A stretch of DNA of 64,000 bases, from contig CAVUPH010000033.1 of the NCBI GenBank assembly GCA_963743305.1, positions 86,569 through 150,568 of the forward strand, read 5' to 3'. Below the pieces are notes generated by a model. The model saw only the letters and a program-made list of their open reading frames with translations. It was not told where the DNA came from and made no database searches. Of the stretch, positions 5,762-56,545 are shown piece by piece (the first letter of the stretch is position 1; each line of letters starts with the position of its first letter). The DNA is from an uncultured delta proteobacterium (GTDB lineage Bacteria; Desulfobacterota; RBG-13-43-22). The position numbers and the translations under genes were made by a program.

Positions 5762-6670
5762 ATGCGTTCCATTGAGCAAATCGTTTCGGCCTTGGAAAAA
5801 CATCATTATATAACGGATCGGCCTCTGGCCACAGTTTTATTTCTGGCCCAAGCCCTTAAGAAACCTGTTTTTCTCGAGGGGGAGCCCGGGGTAGGGAAGA
5901 CCGAGGTGGCCTTGGTGCTTTCCCGGATATTAAAAACCCGGCTGATTCGCCTTCAATGTTACGAGGGGTTGGACGTCCAGACCGCCTTGTATGAGTGGAA
6001 TTATCCGAAACAGATCTTAAGCATCCGCCTGGCGGAAGCCGCCGGCCGGGGTTCGAATGACCTGGAAAAACATATTTTTAGCGAGGAATTTCTGATAAAG
6101 AGGCCCTTGCTCGAAGCGATTCTCAGTTCGGAACCCCGGCCGCCGGTCCTCTTGATCGACGAACTGGACCGGGCTGACGAAGAATTCGAAGCCTTTTTGT
6201 TGGAAATACTTTCCGATTTCCAAATATCCATCCCCGAAATCGGGACCCTCAAAGCCAAAAAGCGTCCTTGGGTGATCATTACCTCCAATCGGACCAGGGA
6301 TATCCACGACGCCCTTAAGCGGAGGTGTCTCTACCACTGGATTGAGTACCCATCGATGGAAAAGGAATTTCAGATCATCCTCTCCCGCATACCTAAGATC
6401 GATCACTCCCTGGCAGGGAAAATCGCCCGGTTTATGTCCAGGCTGCGCAGCCAGGATCTTCAAAAAATGCCGGGGATCTCCGAGAGTCTCGACTGGGCCT
6501 GGGCCCTGATTCACTTGCACAAGCCGACCCTGGATGAACAAACCGTGGAGGAAACGTTGGGCTGTATCCTGAAATACCAGGAGGACCAACGTTTTTTTCG
6601 GGAAAAAGTGCTGGGGGATGAAGGACGGCGGCAAGCCTTTTTTGGGACCGATGCCGGGGCCCCGGGTTAA
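5762..6670 (+). CDS. MoxR-family AAA+ ATPase (CoxD-like)
   Basis: LEGEPGVGKTE, RLQCYEGLD, LLIDELDRADEEFE and ALKRRC motifs; start placed at ATG 5762 because the longer ORF overlaps priA. Confidence 0.88.
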   Translation: MRSIEQIVSALEKHHYITDRPLATVLFLAQALKKPVFLEGEPGVGKTEVALVLSRILKTRLIRLQCYEGLDVQTALYEWNYPKQILSIRLAEAAGRGSNDLEKHIFSEEFLIKRPLLEAILSSEPRPPVLLIDELDRADEEFEAFLLEILSDFQISIPEIGTLKAKKRPWVIITSNRTRDIHDALKRRCLYHWIEYPSMEKEFQIILSRIPKIDHSLAGKIARFMSRLRSQDLQKMPGISESLDWAWALIHLHKPTLDEQTVEETLGCILKYQEDQRFFREKVLGDEGRRQAFFGTDAGAPG

Positions 6671-7856
6671 CCTGCCCGTCTGCGCCGGACCGGGTCCTCT
6701 GCCCGGGGTCCTGAACCAAGAGCGGCTCTCCGGAAGGGTTCATCGTTTTGGACGCCGATTGAAATCCTTGGGAATACCGGTGACCCTTACCGGGGTTCGC
6801 GATGCCCTGCGTTCTCTGCTCTATGTGGATATAACCCGAAAAGCCGATTTCGAGATCGCCCTGCGGGCCAATTTAATTTTTCGAAAGGAGGATCTGGGTC
6901 TTTTCGAGGCCGAATTCGATTATTTCTGGCGTTCCCTGGAAATCCCGGAAGAACCGGGGCCCAGCCGGGAGTCCGGGATCAGCCCCAGCCTTTGGCCGGC
7001 AGATCGGGGGATGGGGGAGGAAGATTCACGCGTCGTCGAAGAGAAGACCGGAAGGCTTTTCAGCCGGGCCGAGGTGCTGGCCGAAAAAGATTTCCAGGCC
7101 TGGGAGGAGGACGACTGGCAGGAGGTCTCCCGCTGGGTGCGGCATTGGGTCCGTCCATTGATTAACCGCCATTCCCTTCGTTTTCGATCCTCCCATCGCG
7201 GATCGAGGCTCGAAATCCGAAAAATGCTTCGCCGGAGCCTGCGGGTGGGGGGGGATTTGACGGCCCTGGCCTATCGCCGGAAGAAAATCAAGCCGCGGCG
7301 GTTGATTTTTCTGGCCGATGTAAGCGGGTCCATGGAGCAGTACGGACGGTATTTCTTTCTTTTTCTGCAGGCCTGGCTGCAGGACCGTTTTCCGGTGGAG
7401 GTTTTTGCTTTTTCCACCCGTTTGACCTATTTAACCCCTTTGATTAAATCAAAAAAGAGGGAAGAGGTGAGGGAGATCGTTTCCGCTCACGTCCCTCAAT
7501 GGTCAAGCGGAACCCGGATCGGGGAGTCTTTAGGGCAGTTTTTACGGACTTACGGCAAAAAGCTTTTGGGGACCCGAAGTCTGGTCCTGATTTTCAGTGA
7601 CGGCTGGGACTTGGGGGAGCCGGAGGTATTGCGGGAGGCCATGCGTAGAATTCACCGACGGTCTCATAAGATCCTCTGGTTGAATCCTCTGATGGGGTGC
7701 GCCGATTACCAACCCATTTGCCGAGGCATGGCCGCGGCCCTGCCCTGGGTGGATCGCTTACTTCCGGCCCATAACCTGCGCACCTTTTGGGAAACGGCGG
7801 CATTAGTCAAGAGCCTGTTGGTCACCGGAAAATATGTTGATTTGGAAGGCGTATGA
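6618..7856 (+). CDS. VWA domain protein (CoxE-like)
   Basis: DVSGSME MIDAS motif, GTRIGESL, SDGWD and WLNPL; paired with the MoxR ATPase; start uncertain. Confidence 0.85.
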   Translation: MKDGGKPFLGPMPGPRVNLPVCAGPGPLPGVLNQERLSGRVHRFGRRLKSLGIPVTLTGVRDALRSLLYVDITRKADFEIALRANLIFRKEDLGLFEAEFDYFWRSLEIPEEPGPSRESGISPSLWPADRGMGEEDSRVVEEKTGRLFSRAEVLAEKDFQAWEEDDWQEVSRWVRHWVRPLINRHSLRFRSSHRGSRLEIRKMLRRSLRVGGDLTALAYRRKKIKPRRLIFLADVSGSMEQYGRYFFLFLQAWLQDRFPVEVFAFSTRLTYLTPLIKSKKREEVREIVSAHVPQWSSGTRIGESLGQFLRTYGKKLLGTRSLVLIFSDGWDLGEPEVLREAMRRIHRRSHKILWLNPLMGCADYQPICRGMAAALPWVDRLLPAHNLRTFWETAALVKSLLVTGKYVDLEGV

Positions 7857-7916
7857 CGAGAAATCGGGGAATGGTAATTCGATACCTTGAGCAATCTGAA
7901 TCTCGGTCTCGGTAAG

Positions 7917-9041
7917 ATGAAAGTTTCCTTCGTTACCTCGGATTTGAAACTCTCGGGAGGAATAATGGTAGTCGCTGAATATGCTAGCCGTTTAGCCGCC
8001 CGTGGGCACCAGGTTTGCGTAATTAGTTCCGCGGGGGAGGCGAGCCCCTTGATCGCTCTTCTATTGTCTGAGGTAGAAATTAGGAAAACAGAAATTTCAT
8101 TAGAGCGCGTTTTAAAAAATCGGTGGGGGCAGTTACGTTTTTGTTGGCAGTTAGCCCAAAAAGTTCCTTCCTCCGATTGGGTCATCGCCACACACACCCC
8201 GACGACTATTCCTACTCTTTTGGCCACCAGTTGGTTTTGGCGAAAAGGGAGTCCCTCCTGGTTGTACGCCGATTTCCGGGAAATGTTTGACACCCGGACC
8301 ATGGAGCGATGGCTCGTTACCGTAGCTCCCCGATTTTTTAAACGACTGCTGGTTTTCTCTCGAGACAGTCAGGAAGAAATTTGGAAGAATTGCAAAAAAA
8401 AATCGATGGTCGTGGGATTGGGTCTAAGCAACCTGGCCGATTTCAATCAGGTAATTCCTAGAGCGGTCAACCAGACACCTTTTAAGGTAATGACCATTAC
8501 GGATAAGCGGCCGAGGAAAGGATTGACTGATTTTTTGTCGGCCATGGACAGAGTCGGTCGGAAAATTTCTGGTCTTCAACTGATCATCGTCTCCAAGGAA
8601 CCGCTGGAAGTGGATAGCAGTCTACCGTATCGATTATTTATTAACCCACCCCGCAGTCGGCTGATAAAATTATTGCACGAGGCGTCCCTTTTCGTTTCCG
8701 CTTCTTGGAAGGAAGGGTTCGGGTTACCGCCGTTGGAAGCCATGGCCAGTGGAACCCCCGTGGTATTGACCGATTCAGGAGGAGTCAGAGATTATGCTCA
8801 AAACGAGGTCAACTGCCTTCTCGTGCCGCCGAAATCACCTGTTAAACTGGCGGAGGCGATTATCCAGTTGCTTAATGATAACCGGCTGGCAGAGAAATTC
8901 TCCCGAGCGGGGTTGGAAACTGTGAAAACTTTTTCCTGGGAAAAGGCGACTGACCGTTTTGAACAGGCGCTAAGTGGACCTATCCCGCGAGGGATTCTTC
9001 CATCCACTTGGAGAGTATTTTGGCCGCCGCGCCGACACTGA
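7917..9041 (+). CDS. Glycosyltransferase family 4
   Basis: SGGIMVVAEYA N-terminus; RKG and EGFGLPPLEAMASGTPVV motifs. Confidence 0.9.
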   Translation: MKVSFVTSDLKLSGGIMVVAEYASRLAARGHQVCVISSAGEASPLIALLLSEVEIRKTEISLERVLKNRWGQLRFCWQLAQKVPSSDWVIATHTPTTIPTLLATSWFWRKGSPSWLYADFREMFDTRTMERWLVTVAPRFFKRLLVFSRDSQEEIWKNCKKKSMVVGLGLSNLADFNQVIPRAVNQTPFKVMTITDKRPRKGLTDFLSAMDRVGRKISGLQLIIVSKEPLEVDSSLPYRLFINPPRSRLIKLLHEASLFVSASWKEGFGLPPLEAMASGTPVVLTDSGGVRDYAQNEVNCLLVPPKSPVKLAEAIIQLLNDNRLAEKFSRAGLETVKTFSWEKATDRFEQALSGPIPRGILPSTWRVFWPPRRH

Positions 9042-10049
9042 GGCGTTGATGATAAAGTCGGCGACCATTGGCCCCCAGGGTCTTACGCAGCGTATCATCC
9101 CCGATTAAGGTTTCAATCGCTTGGGCTAAGGCCTGGGCATTAGCGGTAGGACACATGAACGCATCCTGGCCATGGGTTAATACCTCGCGGTTGGCTGGGG
9201 TATCGCCAACAATAACGGGTTTAGCATTCGTCAAGAATTGAAAAGTTTTATTAGAAATAACGCGATGGGCCTTGGGAATATCTGAAAAATGCCCCCCTAA
9301 ACAAATATCCGCCTGGGCGATGTAATGGGCCAGGTCTTGGTAGGGTATCGGGCCGGTGAACTCGATATTGGTCAATCTGCTCCGGTTAACCTCCTCCAGG
9401 CATTTGGGGAATAAGGGGCCCTTCCCCCCCAAGATAAAACGAATATGGGGGAGTCTCTTTGCGGCGTTAATTATGATATCCATTCCGTGCAAGGGGAGGA
9501 ATCCGCTAACCGTAAATACAGTCGCCGTCTTTTGATGGACAAGAGACGGAGACCGCTCGGGGACTTGGTCGGGGCAGCCTAAGTACAATACCTCGATTTT
9601 TTTTTAAGGGCAGACGGAAAGTCTCGCTAAAATAGTGGGCCTGGGCCAGGGAGTCAAGAATGAGGCGACTTGCGGACAAGGCCGCCCAGTCGATCCAAAG
9701 CATAGGACAAATAGCCGATGGGGGAACGGGGAGAGTATTTTTGGCGGTCGAAACAAAGGGTGTCGTAGACGGATATTAAGCTGTCAAAGAGGATCGGTTT
9801 GGAGGTGAGCCGTCGCAAGAAGGGAACAAGCAAGTGCCCGAAAAAACCGACTATAATAACATCGCTGTTTTTTATGGCACCTGAGGTAAGAAGTTTGTTG
9901 AATAGAAGTAAGGAGCGGAATAAAATAGATCTTCCCGGGATGTCGTCCGTGACCTCGACGATCTCACAAGGGTTCAAGGCCAAGGCCTGTAACAATGCGG
10001 CATTTCGAGGATAACTGGCTTCTCTTCCACAGGTAAAAAGTATCCGCAT
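8980..10049 (-). CDS. Glycosyltransferase family 4, broken by two +1 frameshifts (about 9690 and the A9 tract at 9597-9605)
   Basis: Three ORF pieces join as MRILFTCGRE...YALDR/AALSASRLILDSLAQAHYF...LKK/IEVLYLGC...LHG...KAHRVISNKTFQ. Confidence 0.8.
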
Positions 10050-10127: not shown

Positions 10128-11036
10128 GTGGACCTCCGCGTGTCCGGCCCAAAAATTTTTATTGTCATCGTAAACTGGAATTCGCCACAGGAGACGTTGG
10201 CCTGCGTCCATTCATTAGCCAAATCTTCCTACCGTAATTTCGAAATAGTCCTGGTGGATAATGCCTCCTCGGACCATTCCGTAAGATGGTTTAAACAAGA
10301 ACTTTCTCCTGTTGTCCTCTTGACTTCTGCCGTCAATTTAGGATATGCCGGTGGAAACAATATCGGGATACAGTATGCCCTGCAGCATCAAGCCGATTAT
10401 ATCCTTCTGTTGAACAACGACACGGAGGTTCATTCTAACCTGCTTGAAATGATGGTCTGGGCCGCCCAGGAAGGGCCCGGGTTCGGCATTTTAGGGCCGG
10501 CGATCTATTATTTTGATGAACCAAGTCGGATATGGGGGTTGGGAAGCAGATATAAATGGTGGTCCCCGATCCCCATCGATGTTGGACGAAATAAAGTAAA
10601 TAGAGGTCGATACCAGGAATTTTTTGAAGCGGATTACGTGACCGGGTGCGCCATGTGGATTAAGGCCACGGTGTTTGCCCAAATCGGGTTTTTGGACGAA
10701 AGCTTCTTTATGTATTATGAAGACGCGGAATTCTGCCACCGGGCGCGAAAGGCGGGAATTCATATCGGAGTGGTCCCCGGAGGAACGGTTTTCCATAAGG
10801 CTTCACGGAGTTCGAGATCGTTTCGCGGGGAAGCCCTCTATTATCAAACCAGAAATCGTTTCATTTTCTATAATCGGCTGGCCAAAGGGCCAAGGAAAGC
10901 AATGGTTAACCTATTCTTGGGGCTAAAAATCCTGCGGCTGGGTATGACCTTCCTATCCGACCGCGGGGCATTGGGTTTATTCTGGCACGGCCTCGGAGAT
11001 GGCCTGAAAAGGAAAACGGGTAAAAGGGTGAAATAA
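10128..11036 (+). CDS. Glycosyltransferase family 2 (rhamnosyltransferase-like)
   Basis: IVIVNWN, VDNASSD, NLGYAGGNN, LLNND and FFMYYEDAEF motifs. Confidence 0.9.
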   Translation: MDLRVSGPKIFIVIVNWNSPQETLACVHSLAKSSYRNFEIVLVDNASSDHSVRWFKQELSPVVLLTSAVNLGYAGGNNIGIQYALQHQADYILLLNNDTEVHSNLLEMMVWAAQEGPGFGILGPAIYYFDEPSRIWGLGSRYKWWSPIPIDVGRNKVNRGRYQEFFEADYVTGCAMWIKATVFAQIGFLDESFFMYYEDAEFCHRARKAGIHIGVVPGGTVFHKASRSSRSFRGEALYYQTRNRFIFYNRLAKGPRKAMVNLFLGLKILRLGMTFLSDRGALGLFWHGLGDGLKRKTGKRVK

Positions 11037-11208
11037 AAAGTATGCTGATCTCACCCTATGCCAACCCGGTTAACTTCGGACTGTGGATGCCGTTTGCCTG
11101 TTTGCGCTGCGCCGGGCCTCACCAGCGCGCGATATTCTTGCCCCGAGCGAACGAAATGTCCTCCTTCCTGCTGTTCGATCCCCTAGATCGCTACGAACGG
11201 TCTTTTGT

Positions 11209-12165
11209 ATGAAGATCATTCCTTGCCCTCTTTGTTCTTCCTCAGCAGATCTCCCCGTCGCGGAGGTGTATGACCGTTTAATGGGCATTTCTGGCCGGTT
11301 CACTATGGTTCGCTGCCCTTCCTGTGATTTACATTTTCTTAATCCGCAGCCCACCAGGGAGGAATTGGCGCCTTATTATCCCCAGGCGTATGATCCTTAT
11401 GAGACCCCTCTACCTGATCAGTTATCCTGGATAAAGCGACTGCTGGTTCGTTATGGATTTTACAAGCGTTGTAAAGAGGTCTTGAGATATAAAGGCCAGG
11501 GACGGCTATTGGAAATTGGTTGTGCCAAGGGCCTGTTTTTGCAGGCTATGAGCCAAAAGGGGCTTTGGGATCTTTATGGGGTCGAGACGAGTGAGTATGC
11601 TACAACGTTTGCTCGAAGGGAACTGCGGCTGAATGTTTTTCATGGATCGGTTGAAGAAGCCCGGTTCCCTGACGGGTATTTTGACGTAGTCGTAATGTGG
11701 GATGTCTTGGAACATGTGCATGACCCAAAGAAAACCCTTCAAGAGATCCTCCGCACCCTTAAGTCCGATGGTGTATTGATCTTCAGGCTGCCGCTACTCG
11801 GCAGTTGGGATCAAAAGTTATTGGGTCCCTATTGGGCCGGGTGGGACGCTCCCCGTCATCTGACCCTTTTCTCTAAGCTTACCATAGAAAGGATGCTTAT
11901 TGATGCCGGTTTTCGAGTAAAAGGCATGTCCTGCATCTCGGGCAGTTACCCGGCTTTTGCCTTAGGGGTGCGTTTCTGGGTTCGCGAACGCCTTTCTTCC
12001 AAGGGCCAAAAAATGGTCCAAGGTGTGCTGGAATCCTGGGCTGTTCGATTATTGGTTGCTCCTTTTTTCTTTTTCGTTGATCGTATGGTCAAGGGAACGG
12101 TCGTGACAGTCGTTGCCCTGCCTGCCAATAAAACCCAGCTTCCCCTGTCACGACAGGGAAATTGA
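11209..12165 (+). CDS. Class I SAM-dependent methyltransferase with N-terminal zinc ribbon
   Basis: CPLC...CPSC; LLEIGCAKG; WDVLEHVHDP; PRHL. Confidence 0.85.
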   Translation: MKIIPCPLCSSSADLPVAEVYDRLMGISGRFTMVRCPSCDLHFLNPQPTREELAPYYPQAYDPYETPLPDQLSWIKRLLVRYGFYKRCKEVLRYKGQGRLLEIGCAKGLFLQAMSQKGLWDLYGVETSEYATTFARRELRLNVFHGSVEEARFPDGYFDVVVMWDVLEHVHDPKKTLQEILRTLKSDGVLIFRLPLLGSWDQKLLGPYWAGWDAPRHLTLFSKLTIERMLIDAGFRVKGMSCISGSYPAFALGVRFWVRERLSSKGQKMVQGVLESWAVRLLVAPFFFFVDRMVKGTVVTVVALPANKTQLPLSRQGN

Positions 12166-12203: not shown

Positions 12204-12989
12204 TTGGACGAACAGAATGAGAAAAAACAGACGCGGCAGGAAACATTTCACCTTGGGCGACTTATTGAATTGCGGAGTAGTAAGGTCGAAACTTCCACCG
12301 ATTGCCTGTCGGCCTATGATCAGTTACACGAACAGGGCGGCCTTCAGCAAAGGGACTCATTTTATAAGTGGTTATTGAGTCTTTTGCCCCTCTGCCCGGA
12401 GAAACAACTACTGGATATATCTTGCGGCAGAGGGAAATTATTGCACTTTGCCAAGGAGGCAAGGCTCAAAACAACCGGGATTGACCTTTCTCCCGCAGCG
12501 GTTTTCGCCACTTCCCTGCTAGTGCCCCGTTCCAATTTAACCGTTGCCAACGCGGAAAATCTACCCTTTAAGAAAGACCTTTTTCATTATGTAACCAACA
12601 TCGGAAGCCTGGAGCATTATTTCAATCCTGCCCGGGCCATCAAGGAAATGACCCGGGTCATGGCTCCCACCGGACTGGCCTTAGTCTTGCTTCCCAACAC
12701 TTTTGGTTTTTTAGGAAATATCTTTCATGTTTGGCGCACCGGTGACGTTTTTGACGACGGCCAACCCTTGCAACGTTACGGAACTCCCCTACAATGGAGT
12801 ACCTTACTACAAGAAAATGGGTTGCGGGTCATCCGGGTCATTAAATACGAAAGGGAATTCCCCAGAACCTGGAGGGATGGGTGTTGGTATCTATGGCACC
12901 CTCATAAACTGGTTCGGGTTTTTCTGTCTTTTCTGATCCCTGTAAATTTTGCCAGTTTTTTAGTGTACCTGTGCCAAAAAGCCGATTAA
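12204..12989 (+). CDS. Class I SAM-dependent methyltransferase
   Basis: LLDISCGRG, AENLPF and GSLEH motifs. Confidence 0.85.
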   Translation: MDEQNEKKQTRQETFHLGRLIELRSSKVETSTDCLSAYDQLHEQGGLQQRDSFYKWLLSLLPLCPEKQLLDISCGRGKLLHFAKEARLKTTGIDLSPAAVFATSLLVPRSNLTVANAENLPFKKDLFHYVTNIGSLEHYFNPARAIKEMTRVMAPTGLALVLLPNTFGFLGNIFHVWRTGDVFDDGQPLQRYGTPLQWSTLLQENGLRVIRVIKYEREFPRTWRDGCWYLWHPHKLVRVFLSFLIPVNFASFLVYLCQKAD

Positions 12990-13060
12990 CCCGGAACAGG
13001 CCATGTGTATTCTGAACCTTGAGTCGAAATTTAAACGGTTTACAAATAGAGGTCTATGGA

Positions 13061-14114
13061 ATGAATGAACCTATTGTAGCCTGGATGAAGGTAAGCGTCA
13101 GGAAAATATTTTTATTTCGACTAATTACCTTCATTCGCGGCACTACTTTTAAAAAAATTATCAATCTGATTTTAACAAAAATACAGTGTCGGCTGAGAAT
13201 GGAAAGGGCAATGGGAATGCCTATTGAATATGTTATTGACCCAATAAACCAATGCAATTTGGAATGTCCCTTATGCCCTACGGGATTAAAAATATCAGGT
13301 CGAAAACTCGGCCAACAAAATCTGGAATCCTTCAAAAAACTGATTGATCAAATCGCTCCCCATGCGTATCGCATTGAATTATATAATTGGGGGGAGCCAC
13401 TTACTTCATCCGAATATTTTTGAGATGATTGCTTATGCCACGGCCCGTAAGGTTGCCGTAGGATTAAGTACCAATTTGAACCGCTTAAACCCTGGATTGG
13501 CGAGGAAATTAATCGAGTCCGGATTGGCCCAGATGATTGTATCTATCGATGGGTCAACCCAACAAACTTACGGAGAATATCGAAAACGTGGTAATTTGGA
13601 CCAGGTTCTAACGAATTTAAGGCTGCTAATTGAGGAAAGGAAACGTCTTCAAAAGAAAGGCCCCTTTATAATCTGGAGGATGCTTATTGGAAAGCATAAT
13701 GAAAATGAGATAACGGATGTCGCGAAAATGGCCAAAGAGATCGGAGTGGATGGGTTCATGACCGGGGGGCTGTTTATAAATACTGAAAATCCTGATCATA
13801 TTGCCCGATGGATTCCAACTATTCCAAAATATAACCCCTATTTCAAAAAGGATAAATTGGAAAATACCTGGGATTGTCGTGATTTGTGGGAAACTATGGT
13901 TATTAATTGGGACGGGGGAGTTTCACCTTGTTGCTGGCCCCATAAAGCGCAACACGATTTCGGCAATATATTTGAAAAGACGGTAGTCGAAATCTGGAAA
14001 GGAGCTAAATTTACTAGCGCCCGACGTCAAATAGGGAAAAAGAAAAGAACCCCAAACGATCCTCAAACGCTATGTCATATCTGTAAAAGCCATCCGCGCT
14101 ATTTGACGTATTGA
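13061..14114 (+). CDS. Radical SAM/SPASM (twitch) protein, +1 frameshift near 13402
   Basis: CNLECPLC, then NWGEPL/LHPNIFEMI in the next frame; C-terminal C...WDGGVSPCC...GN...CHIC. Confidence 0.82.
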
Positions 14115-15720: not shown

Positions 15721-17058
15721 TTAATTGTTTGAGGCATCATAGCCGTAAAACTGGTCTCCGGCTAATGCGGTGTTGATTTCATTAACGATAGCGGCAATTT
15801 TACAACCTACCCCAGTACCGGTAATGGTTGCCGACCCGACATATTGGGGACTGGCAAATTGGCCGGAATTCTGGATAAAGGTAGCAGAATCTCCCGGAGC
15901 TAGACCATTAGCCACATCATTGGCCGGAGAAAATGAGGTTCCCGGGCTGTAAGCAATGGTGACATCGCAGGGAGCCGTTCCGACGTTCTGGACCTGAAGC
16001 CCGGTATAGAAACCGCTGTTATTGGCCATGATTAATGGAGCCAGCGCGCTGACCGTAGCTCCACTGGGGTTGAAGCCTTCATATGCGTTCCCCACACCTG
16101 CGGATCCGATTTGATTGACGATGGCGACTAAGTTGTTGCCGCCCGAGTTGGAGACGACAGCCCCGCCGACATATTTTTGGGTCCATTGGCCGGTATTGTG
16201 CAGTTTTGTGCAGGAGGCCCCGGGCGCAAGATCAGGACAGGTTTCATCTGCCGGGGAAAAAGCCGCCCGTGTTGGGTGAATATTTTATCGTTACATTCGT
16301 GGCGGTGGCCCCGGTGTTCTGAACCTGTACCCCGGTATAAAAACCACCGTTATTGGCCATAATTAGAGGCAGGTTAACGTCAGTTGAACCACTGGAAAAA
16401 CCATTATAGCCTAAAAGGACTTTGAGCCCCCCCTGGCCGACCTGCATGACCGTAGCTACTATGGGCGTTCCCCCGGTGCTGGTTACGGTAGCCGAGCCGA
16501 CGAAACCGGCCGGCAAAGCAGCGTTGGTGGCCTGATCGAAGGTTTTAGCCGCTCCGGGAAGGATGGTGGCCGTCTCGGTGGTTGCTGGATCGGTGCTGTA
16601 GGTTACCGTAACATCCGTGCTGGCCGTCCCTGTGTTTTGAACGTTGAACCAGGTGTCGAACCCCGAATTCCCTTTCATCAGCAGGGGCAGGCTGATACTG
16701 GAGGAGCCCGAAGAAAATCCGTTGGTAGAGGCTCCGTAGGTAGGGAAATCCCCCAACGGTGTTGACAATAGCCACGACCTGCTGGTCGGACTCGATGATC
16801 ACGGAACCATTAAAACCAGAAGGAGCATCGATGGGAAAGTAGGTTTTTGAACTATTGGCCCAGAATGGTGTCCGTTGGACTGTTCACCACATTTCCAGCC
16901 TGGTCAATGTACTTGATTAGGATGTTGGCGGTCGTGGCGCTCAAATTCTGAACCTGAAAACCTGAAGAATAAGTAATGGCGTTAACCGGATTGCCCATCG
17001 ACAACAATACGAACACTCCCAAGAAAACGATGGCTGAAATTTGGCTGACTTTTTTCAT
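15721..17058 (-). CDS. Secreted four-repeat beta-rich surface/S-layer-like protein (about 444 aa after removing three +1 frameshifts)
   Basis: Signal peptide ending VNA; four repeats of about 105 aa with VQN...Y...GS/GG...VAIVN; single-base insertions near 16860, 16757 and 16253 restore one ORF. Confidence 0.8.
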
Positions 17059-49914: not shown

Positions 49915-51258
49915 TCAGATGCCCGGCTTGAATACCAACGGTAAATAACAGGCCAGGGGAGGTCCCCAGAGCCTTAAGACCAGCAGGTCATCCGTGGTCC
50001 CGTTAAATGTGAAACCGGTGACCACGATTTTCCCGTCCTGCTGGAGGGCCAGGCCCAGGCCCCGGGCGATTCCCAGGGCGTCCCCCTGAAACAATACCGT
50101 TCCGTTGACTCCGAAGGTCTCGTCCAAAGTCCCGTTGGCGTTCAACCGGAGGACCAGCACGTCTTCACCGGATCCATCGACCTGAGAACCGACGACCAGA
50201 ATTTTCCCATCCCGCTGGAAGGCCATCCCGTATCCGGAGGCCTGAGCAGTCCCCTTAGCAGGAAAGGTCATCACCCCTTGTGTGCCGAAGGTCAGATCCA
50301 ACGTCCCCTGAGCGGTTAATCGCAGGACGATCAATCGGGGGATATCCGAGGGGTCGGTGCTGACTCCGATGACTACGATTTTCCCATCGGGTTGAACCGA
50401 AACCCCGTACCCGTAATCCGAGCGATCTCCGGCACCGCTGTAGAGGAACACCCCCTGGGTGGCAAAATCGGTATCCGGCGTGCCATCCGGTTTGTAGCGC
50501 AGGGCCAGCAGGTCGTCCTGGGTCTGGATGGTCACCGCGCCCGCGACGACGATCTTTTCATCGTCTTGAACCGTGACGGCGAATCCGCGATCCAAACCTC
50601 CTCCGGAGCCGGGATAAGTTACCACCCCGCCGGCACCGAACGTCCCGTCCAGGATCCCGGTCGGGGTTAGCCGCAGCAGGATTAAATCCTGATTGCTGCC
50701 GTTGGAGCTTTCCCCGGTCACCAGAATCTTTCCGTCCTTCTGAAGGGCGACCCCGAAAGCCAGGTTGGTACCGGGGACGGTACCCGGGTAAACGAACACT
50801 CCCTGGTCGGCAAAACCCGGGTCCGGGGTACCGTCGTCCAGATAACGGAGCACCAGCATATCCCGATCGGTGCCGTTGTAGTATTGCCCGACCGCGATGA
50901 TTTTTCCATCCGTCTGGAGCGCCAGCCCCAACCCCCGATCGTCCCCCTGGCCCCCGTTGTAGGTGACAAACCCGTACCGGTTAAAGGTAGGGTCCAATTT
51001 CCCATCGGGGGTATACCGGACCAGCAGGAGGTCGTCATTGGTGCCGTTGTGGCTATACCCCAGGACCAGGATTTTTCCGTCGCTTTGGACGGCTGTTTCA
51101 ATGCCCCGGTCCCGCCGGTCCGCCGGCCCTTTGAAGAGGACAAAACCGTTCGGAGGATTGAAGGAAAGATCGAGGTCTCCCTGGGCCGCCGCCAGACGCC
51201 CCGGTAGAATGAACAGCAAGAACAATAAACAAACTCCTCCAGCCTTTTTCCCCCTCAT
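49915..51258 (-). CDS. Secreted delta-60 repeat protein with a YLPLVFK tail
   Basis: Signal peptide; about seven (L/V)Q.DGKI(L/V)V.G...R...G.LD.TF...G repeats. Confidence 0.88.
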   Translation of the reverse strand: MRGKKAGGVCLLFLLFILPGRLAAAQGDLDLSFNPPNGFVLFKGPADRRDRGIETAVQSDGKILVLGYSHNGTNDDLLLVRYTPDGKLDPTFNRYGFVTYNGGQGDDRGLGLALQTDGKIIAVGQYYNGTDRDMLVLRYLDDGTPDPGFADQGVFVYPGTVPGTNLAFGVALQKDGKILVTGESSNGSNQDLILLRLTPTGILDGTFGAGGVVTYPGSGGGLDRGFAVTVQDDEKIVVAGAVTIQTQDDLLALRYKPDGTPDTDFATQGVFLYSGAGDRSDYGYGVSVQPDGKIVVIGVSTDPSDIPRLIVLRLTAQGTLDLTFGTQGVMTFPAKGTAQASGYGMAFQRDGKILVVGSQVDGSGEDVLVLRLNANGTLDETFGVNGTVLFQGDALGIARGLGLALQQDGKIVVTGFTFNGTTDDLLVLRLWGPPLACYLPLVFKPGI

Positions 51259-55190: not shown

Positions 55191-56288
55191 TTACCCTTTG
55201 ATAAGAGGCAAAAAATAAGCGCGACTGGGCTGGATAACGCCGAAAAGACCGTTCGCCTCGCCATTAGGACCGGCCGAGAAGTAGATCTTCTCGACGCTTC
55301 CCGCCGCGCCCCCGTTACCGGTGGTTAAAGCCCAGAGGCCGTCAATGGTAAGTGGATTCCCTCCCTGGTCTAGGAGTTGCCCCCTAAAAGAGTTATTGGC
55401 CAGGTCAAAAGTATTGATTCTCCCGTCGCCGAAATTGCCTACCAGCAGATTCCCGGCGAAGGGACCAAAGGAAGCGGGGGCGATCGCCAGGCCCCAGGGC
55501 GAGTTGAGCGTACCTTGTGTGGCGACCCGGCCGAGGAAGTTTCCATTCGTGTCGAAGGCATCAACGAATCCGTTACCCGGTCCCGGCACGTCATCGTGTT
55601 TGGTCGCATCCTGCAAGGCGTAGGTGACGTATAGGTTCGCACCTAAAAGTTGAATATTGAATGGGGCATATCCCGCCGGGAGATTGGGATCCGTGAAGTT
55701 GCCGGTCAGATCGGGCGCGCCCGGGTTTCCCTTGATCACGTCAATCGTCCCCGCTCGGAAATTGGCCGCGTAAAGATAGGCGTTACCGCCGATCGTCGCC
55801 AGGGCGGCCCCCTTGTAAACGTTCGCCGCGGAGGCAAGAACGAGCGTCTCGGCCGTGGTTCCCAGTGCCCCTCGCCAGCCTGAGATGGTCCCGTCTTCGC
55901 TGACAAATAGGAACGCGTCGCTATTGAAGTTGGTTGTGCCGTTAAAAACTTGGCCCGTGACGGTTCCGGACCCGGGAATGATCACTACGAGCGGAAAAAT
56001 GGTGGCAGCATCGGTCGTGGGGTTTACGCCGTAGAGGGTGGTTACGCCAGCTCCGGTGTCCGAAACCCAGAAGGGGCCCGTGGGGGAGAACGATATACCC
56101 CAGGCGTTCTTGAGGTTAGGGTCGGTCTGCTGGGCAGGATTAATGAGTTGATCATCGGTGACCAGATTGGTCTGCTGGAAGAACTGTGCGGCGTTGGCCG
56201 GGGGGCATAGATACGCCGCAAAGACGATGAAAAGCAGCCCAAGAATTGTAAACAGGCTCCACCGAACGGTTCGGTTCAATTTGGTCAT
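55191..56288 (-). CDS. TIGR03118-family secreted protein with a YFLPLIK tail
   Basis: QTNLV.D, NAWG, TGQVFN, EDGTI.GW, YKG.A, PFN, NSPWG, GNFGDG.I, DGLW and GLFG motifs. Confidence 0.88.
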   Translation of the reverse strand: MTKLNRTVRWSLFTILGLLFIVFAAYLCPPANAAQFFQQTNLVTDDQLINPAQQTDPNLKNAWGISFSPTGPFWVSDTGAGVTTLYGVNPTTDAATIFPLVVIIPGSGTVTGQVFNGTTNFNSDAFLFVSEDGTISGWRGALGTTAETLVLASAANVYKGAALATIGGNAYLYAANFRAGTIDVIKGNPGAPDLTGNFTDPNLPAGYAPFNIQLLGANLYVTYALQDATKHDDVPGPGNGFVDAFDTNGNFLGRVATQGTLNSPWGLAIAPASFGPFAGNLLVGNFGDGRINTFDLANNSFRGQLLDQGGNPLTIDGLWALTTGNGGAAGSVEKIYFSAGPNGEANGLFGVIQPSRAYFLPLIKG

Positions 56289-56545
56289 TTCTTTTCCCTC
56301 CTTTTCCAGGTTATTCATTAAGGATACCTAATCCGAAGCTCGACTTCTATAATCAAAAACTACTATTTCAATGGTAAAAAAATAGTATTTTTGAAATTAC
56401 ACTCAGGCGTTAGATGATATTAGGGAGGGTACCCTTTGTCTGACCTGCGGTGACTGGCGGTCATATTCGACGTAATAGATGCGGAGAATGTTCTTGTTTT
56501 TGCGGTGAATAATCGGCATAATGTCCGCAAGGAGTGCGAAGAATT

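Follow-up and report, generated by a model that had tools for sequence, protein, structure and literature searches.

A secreted repeat protein whose first domain lacks a strand and a candidate strand-like C-terminal tag, in Chloroflexota and a delta-proteobacterial genus

Beta-sandwich domains that lack a strand and receive it from another polypeptide are known from donor-strand complementation in chaperone-usher pili, type V pili and archaeal threads, where donor and acceptor are subunits of one polymer, and from the engineered SpyTag/SpyCatcher pair, in which a short peptide supplies, in trans, the strand that a truncated beta-sandwich lacks and the complex is sealed by an isopeptide bond. 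For the PilC/PilY1 adhesins, one account describes a C-terminal tail of about 10 residues that joins them to the type IV pilus tip by beta-strand augmentation to minor pilins (PMC13711793). The fold of interest here is that of the ASRAH (ASRT-homology) domains, which has eight strands derived from two four-strand repeats, with strands 1 and 2 on opposing sheets, a Trp that is conserved where strand 1 begins and an Asn that is nearly invariant where strand 2 ends; such domains are known as solo proteins, dyads and tetrads, a sugar-binding role has been predicted for them, and the tetrads could mimic the tetramer formed by TM1070 (De Souza, Iyer and Aravind 2009, PMC2739507). The available part of that paper distinguishes three families, including secreted amidase-fused Chloroflexi tetrads and actinobacterial dyads, and mentions no C-terminal tails. 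Here we analyze a 64,000-nucleotide (nt) stretch of DNA from an uncultured delta-proteobacterium, hereafter the window, and in it the gene at 17058..15721 on the reverse strand that encodes a secreted repeat protein, hereafter the scaffold. Its four domains have the ASRAH fold in structural models, the first of them lacks strand 1, and short C-terminal tails that resemble this strand occur on secreted proteins throughout the genome. A possible, though not yet probable, picture is that of a natural split-domain display system, in which an abundant envelope glycoprotein has a first domain that is one strand short and C-terminal tags of 7-11 residues on dozens of unrelated secreted enzymes and adhesins snap onto it non-covalently. 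It would be common among Chloroflexota, would take over the role of PEP-CTERM-type anchors, and would have been transferred as one unit to a diderm genus of delta-proteobacteria.

The structural assignment is based on an AlphaFold2 model of P0004, the closest intact relative of the scaffold, aligned with 98 other sequences. The model has four beta-sandwich domains (predicted local distance difference test (pLDDT) 93.6, predicted TM-score (pTM) 0.89), and each of its LPLxM segments is modelled as a strand (residues 119-127, 224-231 and 334-342). In an exhaustive structural search the top match of domain 2, taken with its LPLLM strand (model residues 114-219), was Thermotoga TM1070 (1nc7_A, residues 1-113; Z 14.1, root-mean-square deviation 2.2 Å, 103 of 116 residues aligned), and the second was ASRT, the transducer of sensory rhodopsin from Anabaena (2ii7_A, Z 9.1). 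A copy of domain 1 from a genome of the same genus, aligned with 54 others and folded alone, gave a model (pLDDT 89.4) that matches TM1070 over residues 22-114 only (Z 9.8) and ASRT over residues 27-115 (Z 7.8). By these predictions, the four scaffold domains are ASRAH beta-sandwiches, the LPLxM segment corresponds to the first strand of that fold, domains 2-4 start with V-x-L/A-P-L-I/V-M while domain 1 starts at strand 2, and domain 1 is the TM1070/ASRT fold minus its first strand, the LPLxM strand. The preliminary description of this DNA had called the first domain incomplete, and relative to the solved TM1070 structure it does lack strand 1. The Asn at the end of strand 2 (...QVQN) is invariant in domains 2-4 (N140, N244 and N355), its conservation in domain 1 (N38) is at least 90% (99 sequences), and at the position of the superfamily Trp the scaffold strand-1 copies carry S, N, K or V. 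The high pTM, taken with the published remark on the TM1070 tetramer, suggests that the modelled tetrad is a compact body. An earlier idea that the LPLxM strand forms a hairpin with the next strand was dropped, given that strands 1 and 2 lie in opposite sheets in the ASRAH account (PMC2739507, as far as its available part goes).

Sequence-based searches place the family less directly. The ASRAH-type Pfam model PF07100 had no match to the scaffold family in a sequence profile scan, and PF18986 (DUF5719) reached 29.4 bits against a cut-off of 26.2 in one of four family members scanned; the nearest named clusters in a protein atlas are likewise DUF5719 clusters. A sequence search of the PDB with the family profile returned chance hits only (Rad52 at E 0.55), and Foldseek with the whole model against the PDB yielded no more than generic Ig-like tandem arrays, at TM-scores near 0.1. 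The Slr4 model PF19526 stayed below threshold (16-18 bits, cut-off 25), and no other envelope module was found in the scaffold. Based on the modelled fold, we regard the scaffold as representing a new family within the ASRAH superfamily, one of stand-alone tetrads and not covered by Pfam.

The missing strand is a property of the family and not of this one gene. A 174-residue open piece of the scaffold matches 771 proteins, nearly all of the best 120 being 425-490 amino acids (aa) in length; members typically have about 445 aa, are annotated only as 'hypothetical protein' and, where an organism is stated, come from Chloroflexi, Anaerolineae or Anaerolineales. This is a large unnamed family centred on Chloroflexota. 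In the scaffold itself, repeats 2-4 begin SLPLLMKGNSGFDTWFNVQN, NLPLIMANNGGFYTGVQVQN and LAPLIMANNSGFYTGLQVQN, repeat 1 (ITYSSGFQVQN) immediately follows MKKVSQISAIVFLGVFVLLSMGNPVNA, and the protein ends in GDQFYGYDASNN, which bears out the preliminary statement that repeat 1 has no LPL strand and that the C-terminus does not supply one. Among 109 full-length relatives examined, the start of domain 1 could be located in 107, and 104 of these have no LPL-type strand in the 30 residues upstream of it; three strict strand-1 motifs are present in 82 of the 109. The absence of a strand before repeat 1 is a family trait, and the mature N-terminus that it leaves (I/V-T-Y/W-x-S-G-F-Q-V-Q-N) is strongly conserved, as is the C-terminus (...F-M-T-Y-D-G-F-N-Y). 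It should be noted that a subfamily of about 484 aa (P0054, P0057, P0096 and P0111) has 12-15 extra residues (e.g. ...TEVAGLDVAVTY) between the signal peptide and domain 1, and that these residues might close off the empty slot of strand 1 in cis. Many relatives are the sole gene on contigs of about 1.4-1.6 kb, at most a hint of an abundant S-layer-type protein. A second GFNVQN site (contig C21) lies in an efflux membrane-fusion protein and is a chance match.

The other half of the proposed system is a tail that had been noticed on two proteins of the window, as YLPLVFK and YFLPLIK. Both motifs are present, but each tail runs a few residues further, to YLPLVFKPGI and YFLPLIKG (Table 1). The tail recurs genome-wide. 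In the window's assembly (G000; 43 contigs, 90% complete), the pattern [YFWH]LP[LIV][LIVMF] occurs 174 times in open reading frames (ORFs) of at least 100 aa, and 40 of these occurrences lie 7-10 residues from the C-terminus, compared with 0.47 per internal position, which is far beyond chance. Seven doubtful ORFs were dropped and 37 ORFs, hereafter cargo, were kept, on 19 of the 43 contigs; these approximately 37 ORFs end in [ILV][YFW]LP[LI][ILV]x[RK] followed by 0-3 residues. The tail as a whole has 7-11 residues, the distance from motif to C-terminus varies by those 0-3 residues and by more in Chloroflexota, and no membrane helix follows the tail. An N-terminal hydrophobic stretch is found in 22 of the 29 cargo ORFs of at least 200 aa, as against 1177 of all 4023 ORFs of that size. 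The 21 cargo ORFs that were scanned include TIG, Big, PKD and DUF11 (Ig/PKD-type) proteins, two metallophosphoesterases, a purple-acid-phosphatase-like protein, an M23 peptidase, an S8 subtilase, NHL and FG-GAP propellers, CBM96 and Lcl_C proteins, and the delta-60 repeat and TIGR03118 proteins of the window; by their family assignments these are typical extracytoplasmic families.

For one cargo family, the position of the tag can be compared with that of a known anchoring signal. The best 120 relatives of the TIGR03118-family cargo all share ...NGLFGVIQP, after which, at the same junction, 4 of the 120 carry the tail and 87 a PEP-CTERM-like signal. Similarly, the last 280 residues of the S8 subtilase cargo match 156 proteins; of the best 120, those with a named source are mostly from Chloroflexota, and 92 end in a tail, usually ...V-W-L-P-L-V-A-R-G-W-E-P. 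The tag is real and widespread in Chloroflexota, and its position is equivalent to that of the PEP-CTERM signal. The exosortase family PF09721 was not found in G000 (to the extent of its 90% completeness) or in G169, a genome of the same genus, and is present in G507 and G508, the two others of that genus (g1). Loss of exosortase as a correlate of tails was considered and rejected, the enzyme being present in 5 of 21 genomes of the host's family, including 2 of the 4 of g1.

The resemblance between tail and missing strand goes beyond the residues by which the tails were selected. When the 37 tails and 264 scaffold strand-1 copies are both anchored on the proline, the tails read I/L/V, Y/F/W, L, P, L/I, I/V/L, L/M/V/F, R/K and then end, and the scaffold strands read V/I, S/N/K, L/A, P, L, I/V, M, A/R/K, N/G, N. 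Two positions that were not used in the selection agree, namely position -3 (I/L/V in 79% of the tails, V/I in 88% of the scaffold strands) and position +3, which is hydrophobic in both. The claim that the tail resembles the missing strand is upheld by this position-by-position match and, more strongly, by natural fusions. We retrieved seven large Chloroflexota paralogues in which other domains, including S8 subtilase domains in three, precede two or three scaffold-like domains. In these fusions the match to the scaffold profile starts at the strand-1 position, and the junction strands are VYLPLIMQDASGW, LYLPVVLRGYSGW, LHFPLIMKDANG, LYFPLVEKDVNGW, VYLPALARSTDGW or LVLPLVMRARNG (e.g. VYLPLIMQD, LYLPVVLRG), that is, the complete tail consensus with both the aromatic and the basic residue, after which come the turn and strand 2. 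The S8 subtilase of G000 has the tail only, with no fused scaffold-like domains. On comparison of these sequences, a tailed cargo looks like a fusion that has been cut right after strand 1, and the scaffold like an array that has been cut right before it. An aromatic residue (Y, F or W) is present at the place of the strand-1 Trp in both the cargo tails and the fusion junctions, and the aromatic of the tails may stand for that superfamily Trp, which is absent from the internal strands of the scaffold.

The distribution of the two elements was compared in species-representative genomes, 301 of the host's phylum and 201 of Chloroflexota (the phylum of a Chloroflexia metagenome-assembled genome, MAG). 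Tails were counted with a DNA pattern for [YF]LP[LIVMF]-hydrophobic-hydrophobic-[RK-like]-x-stop, with the reversed pattern as control. The scaffold profile matches 4 of the 301 genomes of the host's phylum at E≤1e-10, strongly only in genus g1, and 34 of the 201 Chloroflexota genomes. In the host-phylum sample, 21 tails were counted in G000 (control 3) and 12 in G169 (control 2), no other genome of this sample exceeds 12, and the eight genomes of the sister genus have 1-7 matches (controls 1-4); a strong excess of tails is thereby confined to g1 in this sample. Scaffold and tail excess are found together in all four g1 genomes, and of the eight Chloroflexota genomes with at least five tails (in the form without a trailing residue) seven have the scaffold, compared with 34 of 201 overall. 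A 33-position profile of the tail module (A2) matched strongly in a single one of the 201 Chloroflexota genomes, the scaffold-bearing G307, which is not enough for a test. The data fit a relationship in which tails usually accompany the scaffold and the scaffold does not need tails.

Based on these observations we propose that the tails complement domain 1. This is the best reading of the data and explains most of them, although we place its chances a little below even. In the proposed mechanism the tail would be strand 1 in detached form and would fill, in trans, the slot that domain 1 leaves vacant for that strand, many different cargo proteins would be tethered non-covalently to the scaffold in this way, and the tag would serve the purpose that PEP-CTERM or fused domain arrays serve in relatives. 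Domain 1 is the only ASRAH-type domain of the genome without strand 1, and the cargo tails are the genome's only free strand-1-like peptides.

Several results weigh against it. Three genomes have tails and no detectable scaffold: G506 (host's family; 89% complete, 30 contigs) with 13 tails against a control of 4, G509 (host's family; 93% complete) with 7 against 1, and G329, the eighth tail-rich Chloroflexota genome, with 7 against 0. In all three the scaffold profile finds nothing even at E≤1 and a DNA motif for strand 1 finds nothing (it recovers 3 of 3 in G000), and a domain-1 motif finds nothing in G506 and G509. A DUF5719 search of the tail-bearing genomes without scaffold yielded only an amidase in G329 with four W-type ASRAH-like repeats, of which the first has its own first strand; this protein (contig C473, L104 1117-3492, reverse strand; 791 codons, secreted, repeats RWYFAEG...) is of the amidase-fused Chloroflexi family described in the available part of PMC2739507. 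The exceptions are real and require either unassembled scaffold genes or another acceptor. The preliminary description held that tails occurring widely without the scaffold would speak against docking; the two are mostly found together, but these three genomes go part of the way in that direction. Conversely, many scaffold-bearing Chloroflexota genomes have 0-2 counted tails (e.g. G467, G499, G427 and G349), the counts being incomplete since the DNA patterns miss longer tails and the W-type tails common in Chloroflexota, and genomes that are related do not count as independent. The scaffold's own strand-1 copies are without the aromatic residue of the tails, and domain 1, which folds confidently alone in the model, may be stable without a partner. 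Furthermore, the host has Omp85/BamA, and a Sec signal alone would leave both scaffold and cargo in the periplasm; display at the surface would not be trivial for such a host. In a complex prediction, the alignment of the scaffold (residues 28-443) was paired with the 40 C-terminal residues of the cargo at 49915..51258; the score was 0.00 twice, without controls and with the fold of the partner uncertain, and it weighs neither way on binding.

The main rival, which we consider unlikely but a serious contender, is that the tail is a sorting or anchoring signal read by some other receptor or enzyme and not by domain 1, its likeness to strand 1 coming from descent from ASRAH-array fusions or from a shared preference for hydrophobic beta-strands. 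The tail-bearing genomes without scaffold and the many scaffolds without counted tails are what one would expect in that case, and the tail does occupy the place of PEP-CTERM, itself a signal for an enzyme. However, within 6 kb of the 37 cargo genes there is no recurrent candidate for a sorting enzyme, the recurrent neighbors being two-component regulators, ABC ATPases and the like; there is no membrane helix behind the tail, in contrast to sortase- and exosortase-type signals; and the variable distance between motif and C-terminus disfavors recognition of a free end. The match with strand 1 at each position and the fusion junctions would both have to be coincidence.

It is improbable, in our estimation, that the tail acts by itself, as a hydrophobic-plus-basic peptide that sticks cargo to the membrane surface or a wall polymer or that exports it across the outer layer, with the scaffold unrelated to it. 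Such a role would suit the six hydrophobic residues followed by R or K, the further export step that a diderm host needs, and the Omp85-family gene that lies between two cargo genes on contig C14. Nevertheless, the conserved Pro and the strict alternation of residues would fit a beta-strand better than a helix on a membrane surface, hundreds of scaffold and fusion proteins contain this motif internally as a structural strand, and tails occur together with the scaffold in 7 of 8 tail-rich Chloroflexota and all four g1 genomes. Equally doubtful is the view that there is no functional link at all, the scaffold being an ordinary sugar-binding or S-layer-type tetrad whose first domain does without strand 1 and the likeness of the tails being due to chance. 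The shared core is indeed short, LP[LIV][LIVMF] occurring 1050 times in the ORFs of the genome, the three strand-1 copies of the scaffold derive from one ancestral repeat and so would amount to a single coincidence, and the confident model of isolated domain 1 is in keeping with this view. Against it, the agreement reaches the flanking positions -3, +3 and +4, the fusion junctions show the tail consensus in full, with its aromatic and basic residues, and the co-occurrence data argue against chance.

In the window, the frame of the scaffold gene is broken. The preliminary description was accurate on this gene, in that it is frame-shifted, the strings quoted from it are all present and 444 aa result on reading through. 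The gene has 1338 nt, corresponding to 444 codons, a stop codon and three surplus bases: residues 1-68 are in frame 0, the sequence up to about residue 100 is in frame 1, that up to ...YSPNTGGFFPGR is in frame 2, and the remainder to the stop is again in frame 0. The surplus base at 16857 is absent from DNA contigs of two public sequencing runs (X1 and X3), and that at 16757/16758 from contigs of X1 (DNA) and X2 (an RNA library), all about 99% identical to the window; the site of the third frame change and most of 15978-16301 have no covering contig among the X1-X3 runs. Two RNA-library contigs span parts of the gene, which we do not take as transcription. A neighboring radical SAM/SPASM gene is also split, at a G-run, and is likely a further consensus error in the window. 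Because two of the three surplus bases are missing from near-identical contigs and because this neighbor is broken at a G-run, the three frame breaks are most likely errors of the assembly consensus and not gene decay. That the scaffold gene is a true pseudogene and the organism without a working scaffold is very improbable: three frame changes fall within 1.3 kb of the only copy in the assembly, and the copies in relatives are broken too (G169 in three pieces, G507 in two), but the surplus base is missing at two sites in contigs of three other runs, the relatives are broken at other positions and G508 of the same genus has an intact frame of 458 codons, the neighboring gene is likewise broken, and all three shifts are +1 with the last part returning to the frame of the first.

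Table 1. Coordinates of the features discussed (positions in the 64,000-nt window)
Feature	Position	Strand	Remarks
Scaffold gene	15721..17058	-	four tandem ASRAH-like beta-sandwich domains (by model), secreted; 444 aa reading through three surplus bases
Signal peptide	16978..17058	-	27 aa, ...NPVNA/ITY; putative cleavage site; helix then coil in model of homologue P0004
Domain 1 (approximate limits)	16718..16977	-	begins ITYSSGFQVQN, strand 2 of the predicted fold; without strand 1
Frame change 1	16857..16858	-	one surplus base, short G/C run
Frame change 2	16757..16758	-	one surplus base adjoining C5 run (plus strand)
Frame change 3	16256..16262	-	TTTTT/CCCC run on coding strand; placed from reading frames only
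Strand 1 and turn, domain 2 (PLLMKGNSGF)	16658..16687	-	pattern match; strand 119-127 in P0004 model
Strand 1 and turn, domain 3 (PLIMANNGGF)	16340..16369	-	pattern match; strand in P0004 model
Strand 1 and turn, domain 4 (PLIMANNSGF)	16009..16038	-	pattern match; strand in P0004 model
Cargo 1, secreted delta-60 repeat / DUF5122 beta-propeller protein	49915..51258	-	ends ...ACYLPLVFKPGI; tail YLPLVFKPGI at 49918..49947
Cargo 2, TIGR03118-family protein	55191..56318	-	ends ...RAYFLPLIKG; tail YFLPLIKG at 55194..55217
GT1-type gene	8980..9588	-	glycan-modification gene, neighborhood kept across phyla
GT2 gene	10128..11036	+	glycan-modification gene, neighborhood kept across phyla
SAM methyltransferase genes	11083..12165 and 12204..12989	+	glycan-modification genes, neighborhood kept across phyla
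Radical SAM/SPASM gene	13019..14114	+	split over two frames at G-run ~13392-13420; one 414-codon gene in a Chloroflexia relative

The preliminary description had placed related proteins and tails in Chloroflexota and the host apparently outside that phylum, and both statements hold, the first in the 34 scaffold-bearing genomes and the frequent tails among Chloroflexota proteins. The host is not a member of the Chloroflexota because the two phylum samples drew different genomes, and G000 encodes two Omp85-family proteins (Omp85/BamA), one in a 924-codon frame, which indicates that the host has an outer membrane. In an unrooted tree of 74 full-length copies, the delta-proteobacterial sequence lies within a well-supported set of 21 rows, 19 of which are from Chloroflexota (SH-like approximate likelihood ratio test, SH-aLRT, 99). 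The tree fits acquisition, and from these sequences we infer that genus g1 may have obtained the scaffold together with its glycan genes from Chloroflexota. Full-length scaffold genes are also found in two MAG records (L006 and L073; Acidobacteriota and Candidatus Brocadiaceae), of which L006 is sister to the delta-proteobacterial sequence in the tree; these copies could reflect transfer or mis-binning.

The gene neighborhood is conserved across the phyla. Glycosyltransferases and two or three S-adenosylmethionine (SAM) methyltransferases lie upstream of the scaffold gene in 60-68 of 80 loci, and the window and the delta-proteobacterial loci retain the methyltransferase, GT2, GT1-type and radical SAM/SPASM genes, on the opposite strand. 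In other bacteria, glycan-modification clusters adjoin genes for S-layer glycoproteins. Because of this parallel we propose that the scaffold is abundant in the envelope and probably glycosylated, for instance as a protein of an S-layer or sheath. Two further genes are common at Chloroflexota loci, one for an LPG_synthase_TM-like membrane protein before the scaffold gene (64 of 80 loci), which is missing from the window, and one of about 196 codons without Pfam match directly after it (62 of 80 loci; in L007, 7463-8050 on the forward strand), which is missing from the window and the delta-proteobacterial loci. At one Anaerolineae locus (L076), a 458-codon ORF that ends in ...GYLPLLVQ (7298-8674, forward strand) is directly downstream of the scaffold gene (6001-7317).

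Some of the cargo genes have features of their own. The S8 subtilase (contig C20 32316-34475; L096) has at residues 440-719 a module that is 40-55% identical to Chloroflexota proteins, whose N-terminal parts vary (DUF5107, DUF362, CBM96/DNRLRE, Kelch, peptidase S9) and most of which end in ...VWLPLVARGWEP. The search with the last 280 residues of this protein was not used as a probe for tails, the matches covering a generic repeat (query residues ~40-140) and not the tail. Two Lcl_C cargo ORFs (C13 253264-254730 and C30 64262-65524) are identical in their last 16 residues (ELGAQYSIFLPLLLRP) and may be a recent duplicate or an assembly repeat. On contig C14 (280519-294980), the Omp85-family gene (288209-289063, 602-codon frame) lies between a DUF11 cargo gene (280519-282543) and an NHL propeller cargo gene (293019-294980).

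The building and decoration of the envelope in Chloroflexota are poorly known; S-layer-bearing monoderms are on record in this phylum, and the accessible parts of those records name no protein. A large family of hypothetical proteins now has a predicted fold, the ASRAH tetrad, and a conserved context of glycan genes, and a genome-wide C-terminal tag has been defined and joined to that family by a concrete model, with a natural transfer into another phylum offered as a case for comparison. If docking proves true, it would provide a sortase-free attachment of proteins to the cell surface and a ready-made peptide-and-domain pair for protein display. As to the preliminary description as a whole, what it observed is confirmed, and what it made of the observation, the docking of tails into domain 1, is partly supported.

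We found no description of the scaffold family or of the tail in the literature, supplementary tables being outside the search. With the ASRAH superfamily (TM1070, 1NC7; ASRT, 2II7), as far as the available part of PMC2739507 describes it, the scaffold shares the modelled eight-stranded beta-sandwich, the strand-2 Asn and the tetrad arrangement in a secreted protein, and its glycan-related context fits the sugar-binding role predicted there. The scaffold differs in having no PF07100 match, in being a stand-alone tetrad without amidase, in a strand 1 without Trp and in a first domain without strand 1. It has no match to a known S-layer family (Slr4, SLH and others) or wall-anchoring module. The C-terminal tag, in being common to many unrelated secreted proteins, is like PEP-CTERM/exosortase, LPXTG and PGF-CTERM signals, and it is found at the PEP-CTERM junction. 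However, its 7-11 residues include neither the membrane helix nor the basic cluster of PEP-CTERM signals, in a genome where no exosortase was found, and in place of LPXTG there is an LP[LI][ILV] motif with 2-5 further residues and no helix, a sortase gene not having been searched for.

With donor-strand complementation the proposed system would share an incomplete beta-sandwich that is completed by a strand from another polypeptide, and would differ in that about 37 unrelated cargo proteins would be C-terminal donors to one scaffold. Compared with the chaperone-usher system in particular, the missing strand is the first and not the last of the fold and the candidate donor is C-terminal, chaperone and usher genes not having been searched for. 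PilC/PilY1, in the accessible text of PMC13711793, likewise uses an extreme C-terminal tail as an adapter that adds a strand to the sheet of a partner; in that text it is one family with one pilus partner complex, with no genome-wide tag and no truncated domain that is completed. SpyTag/SpyCatcher is man-made and covalent, whereas nothing in the scaffold or the tails suggests a covalent link. Taken together, these comparisons suggest a mode of attachment that falls within none of these systems and is akin both to anchoring tags at the C-terminus and to complementation by a strand, with a scaffold that is a new addition to an already known fold superfamily.

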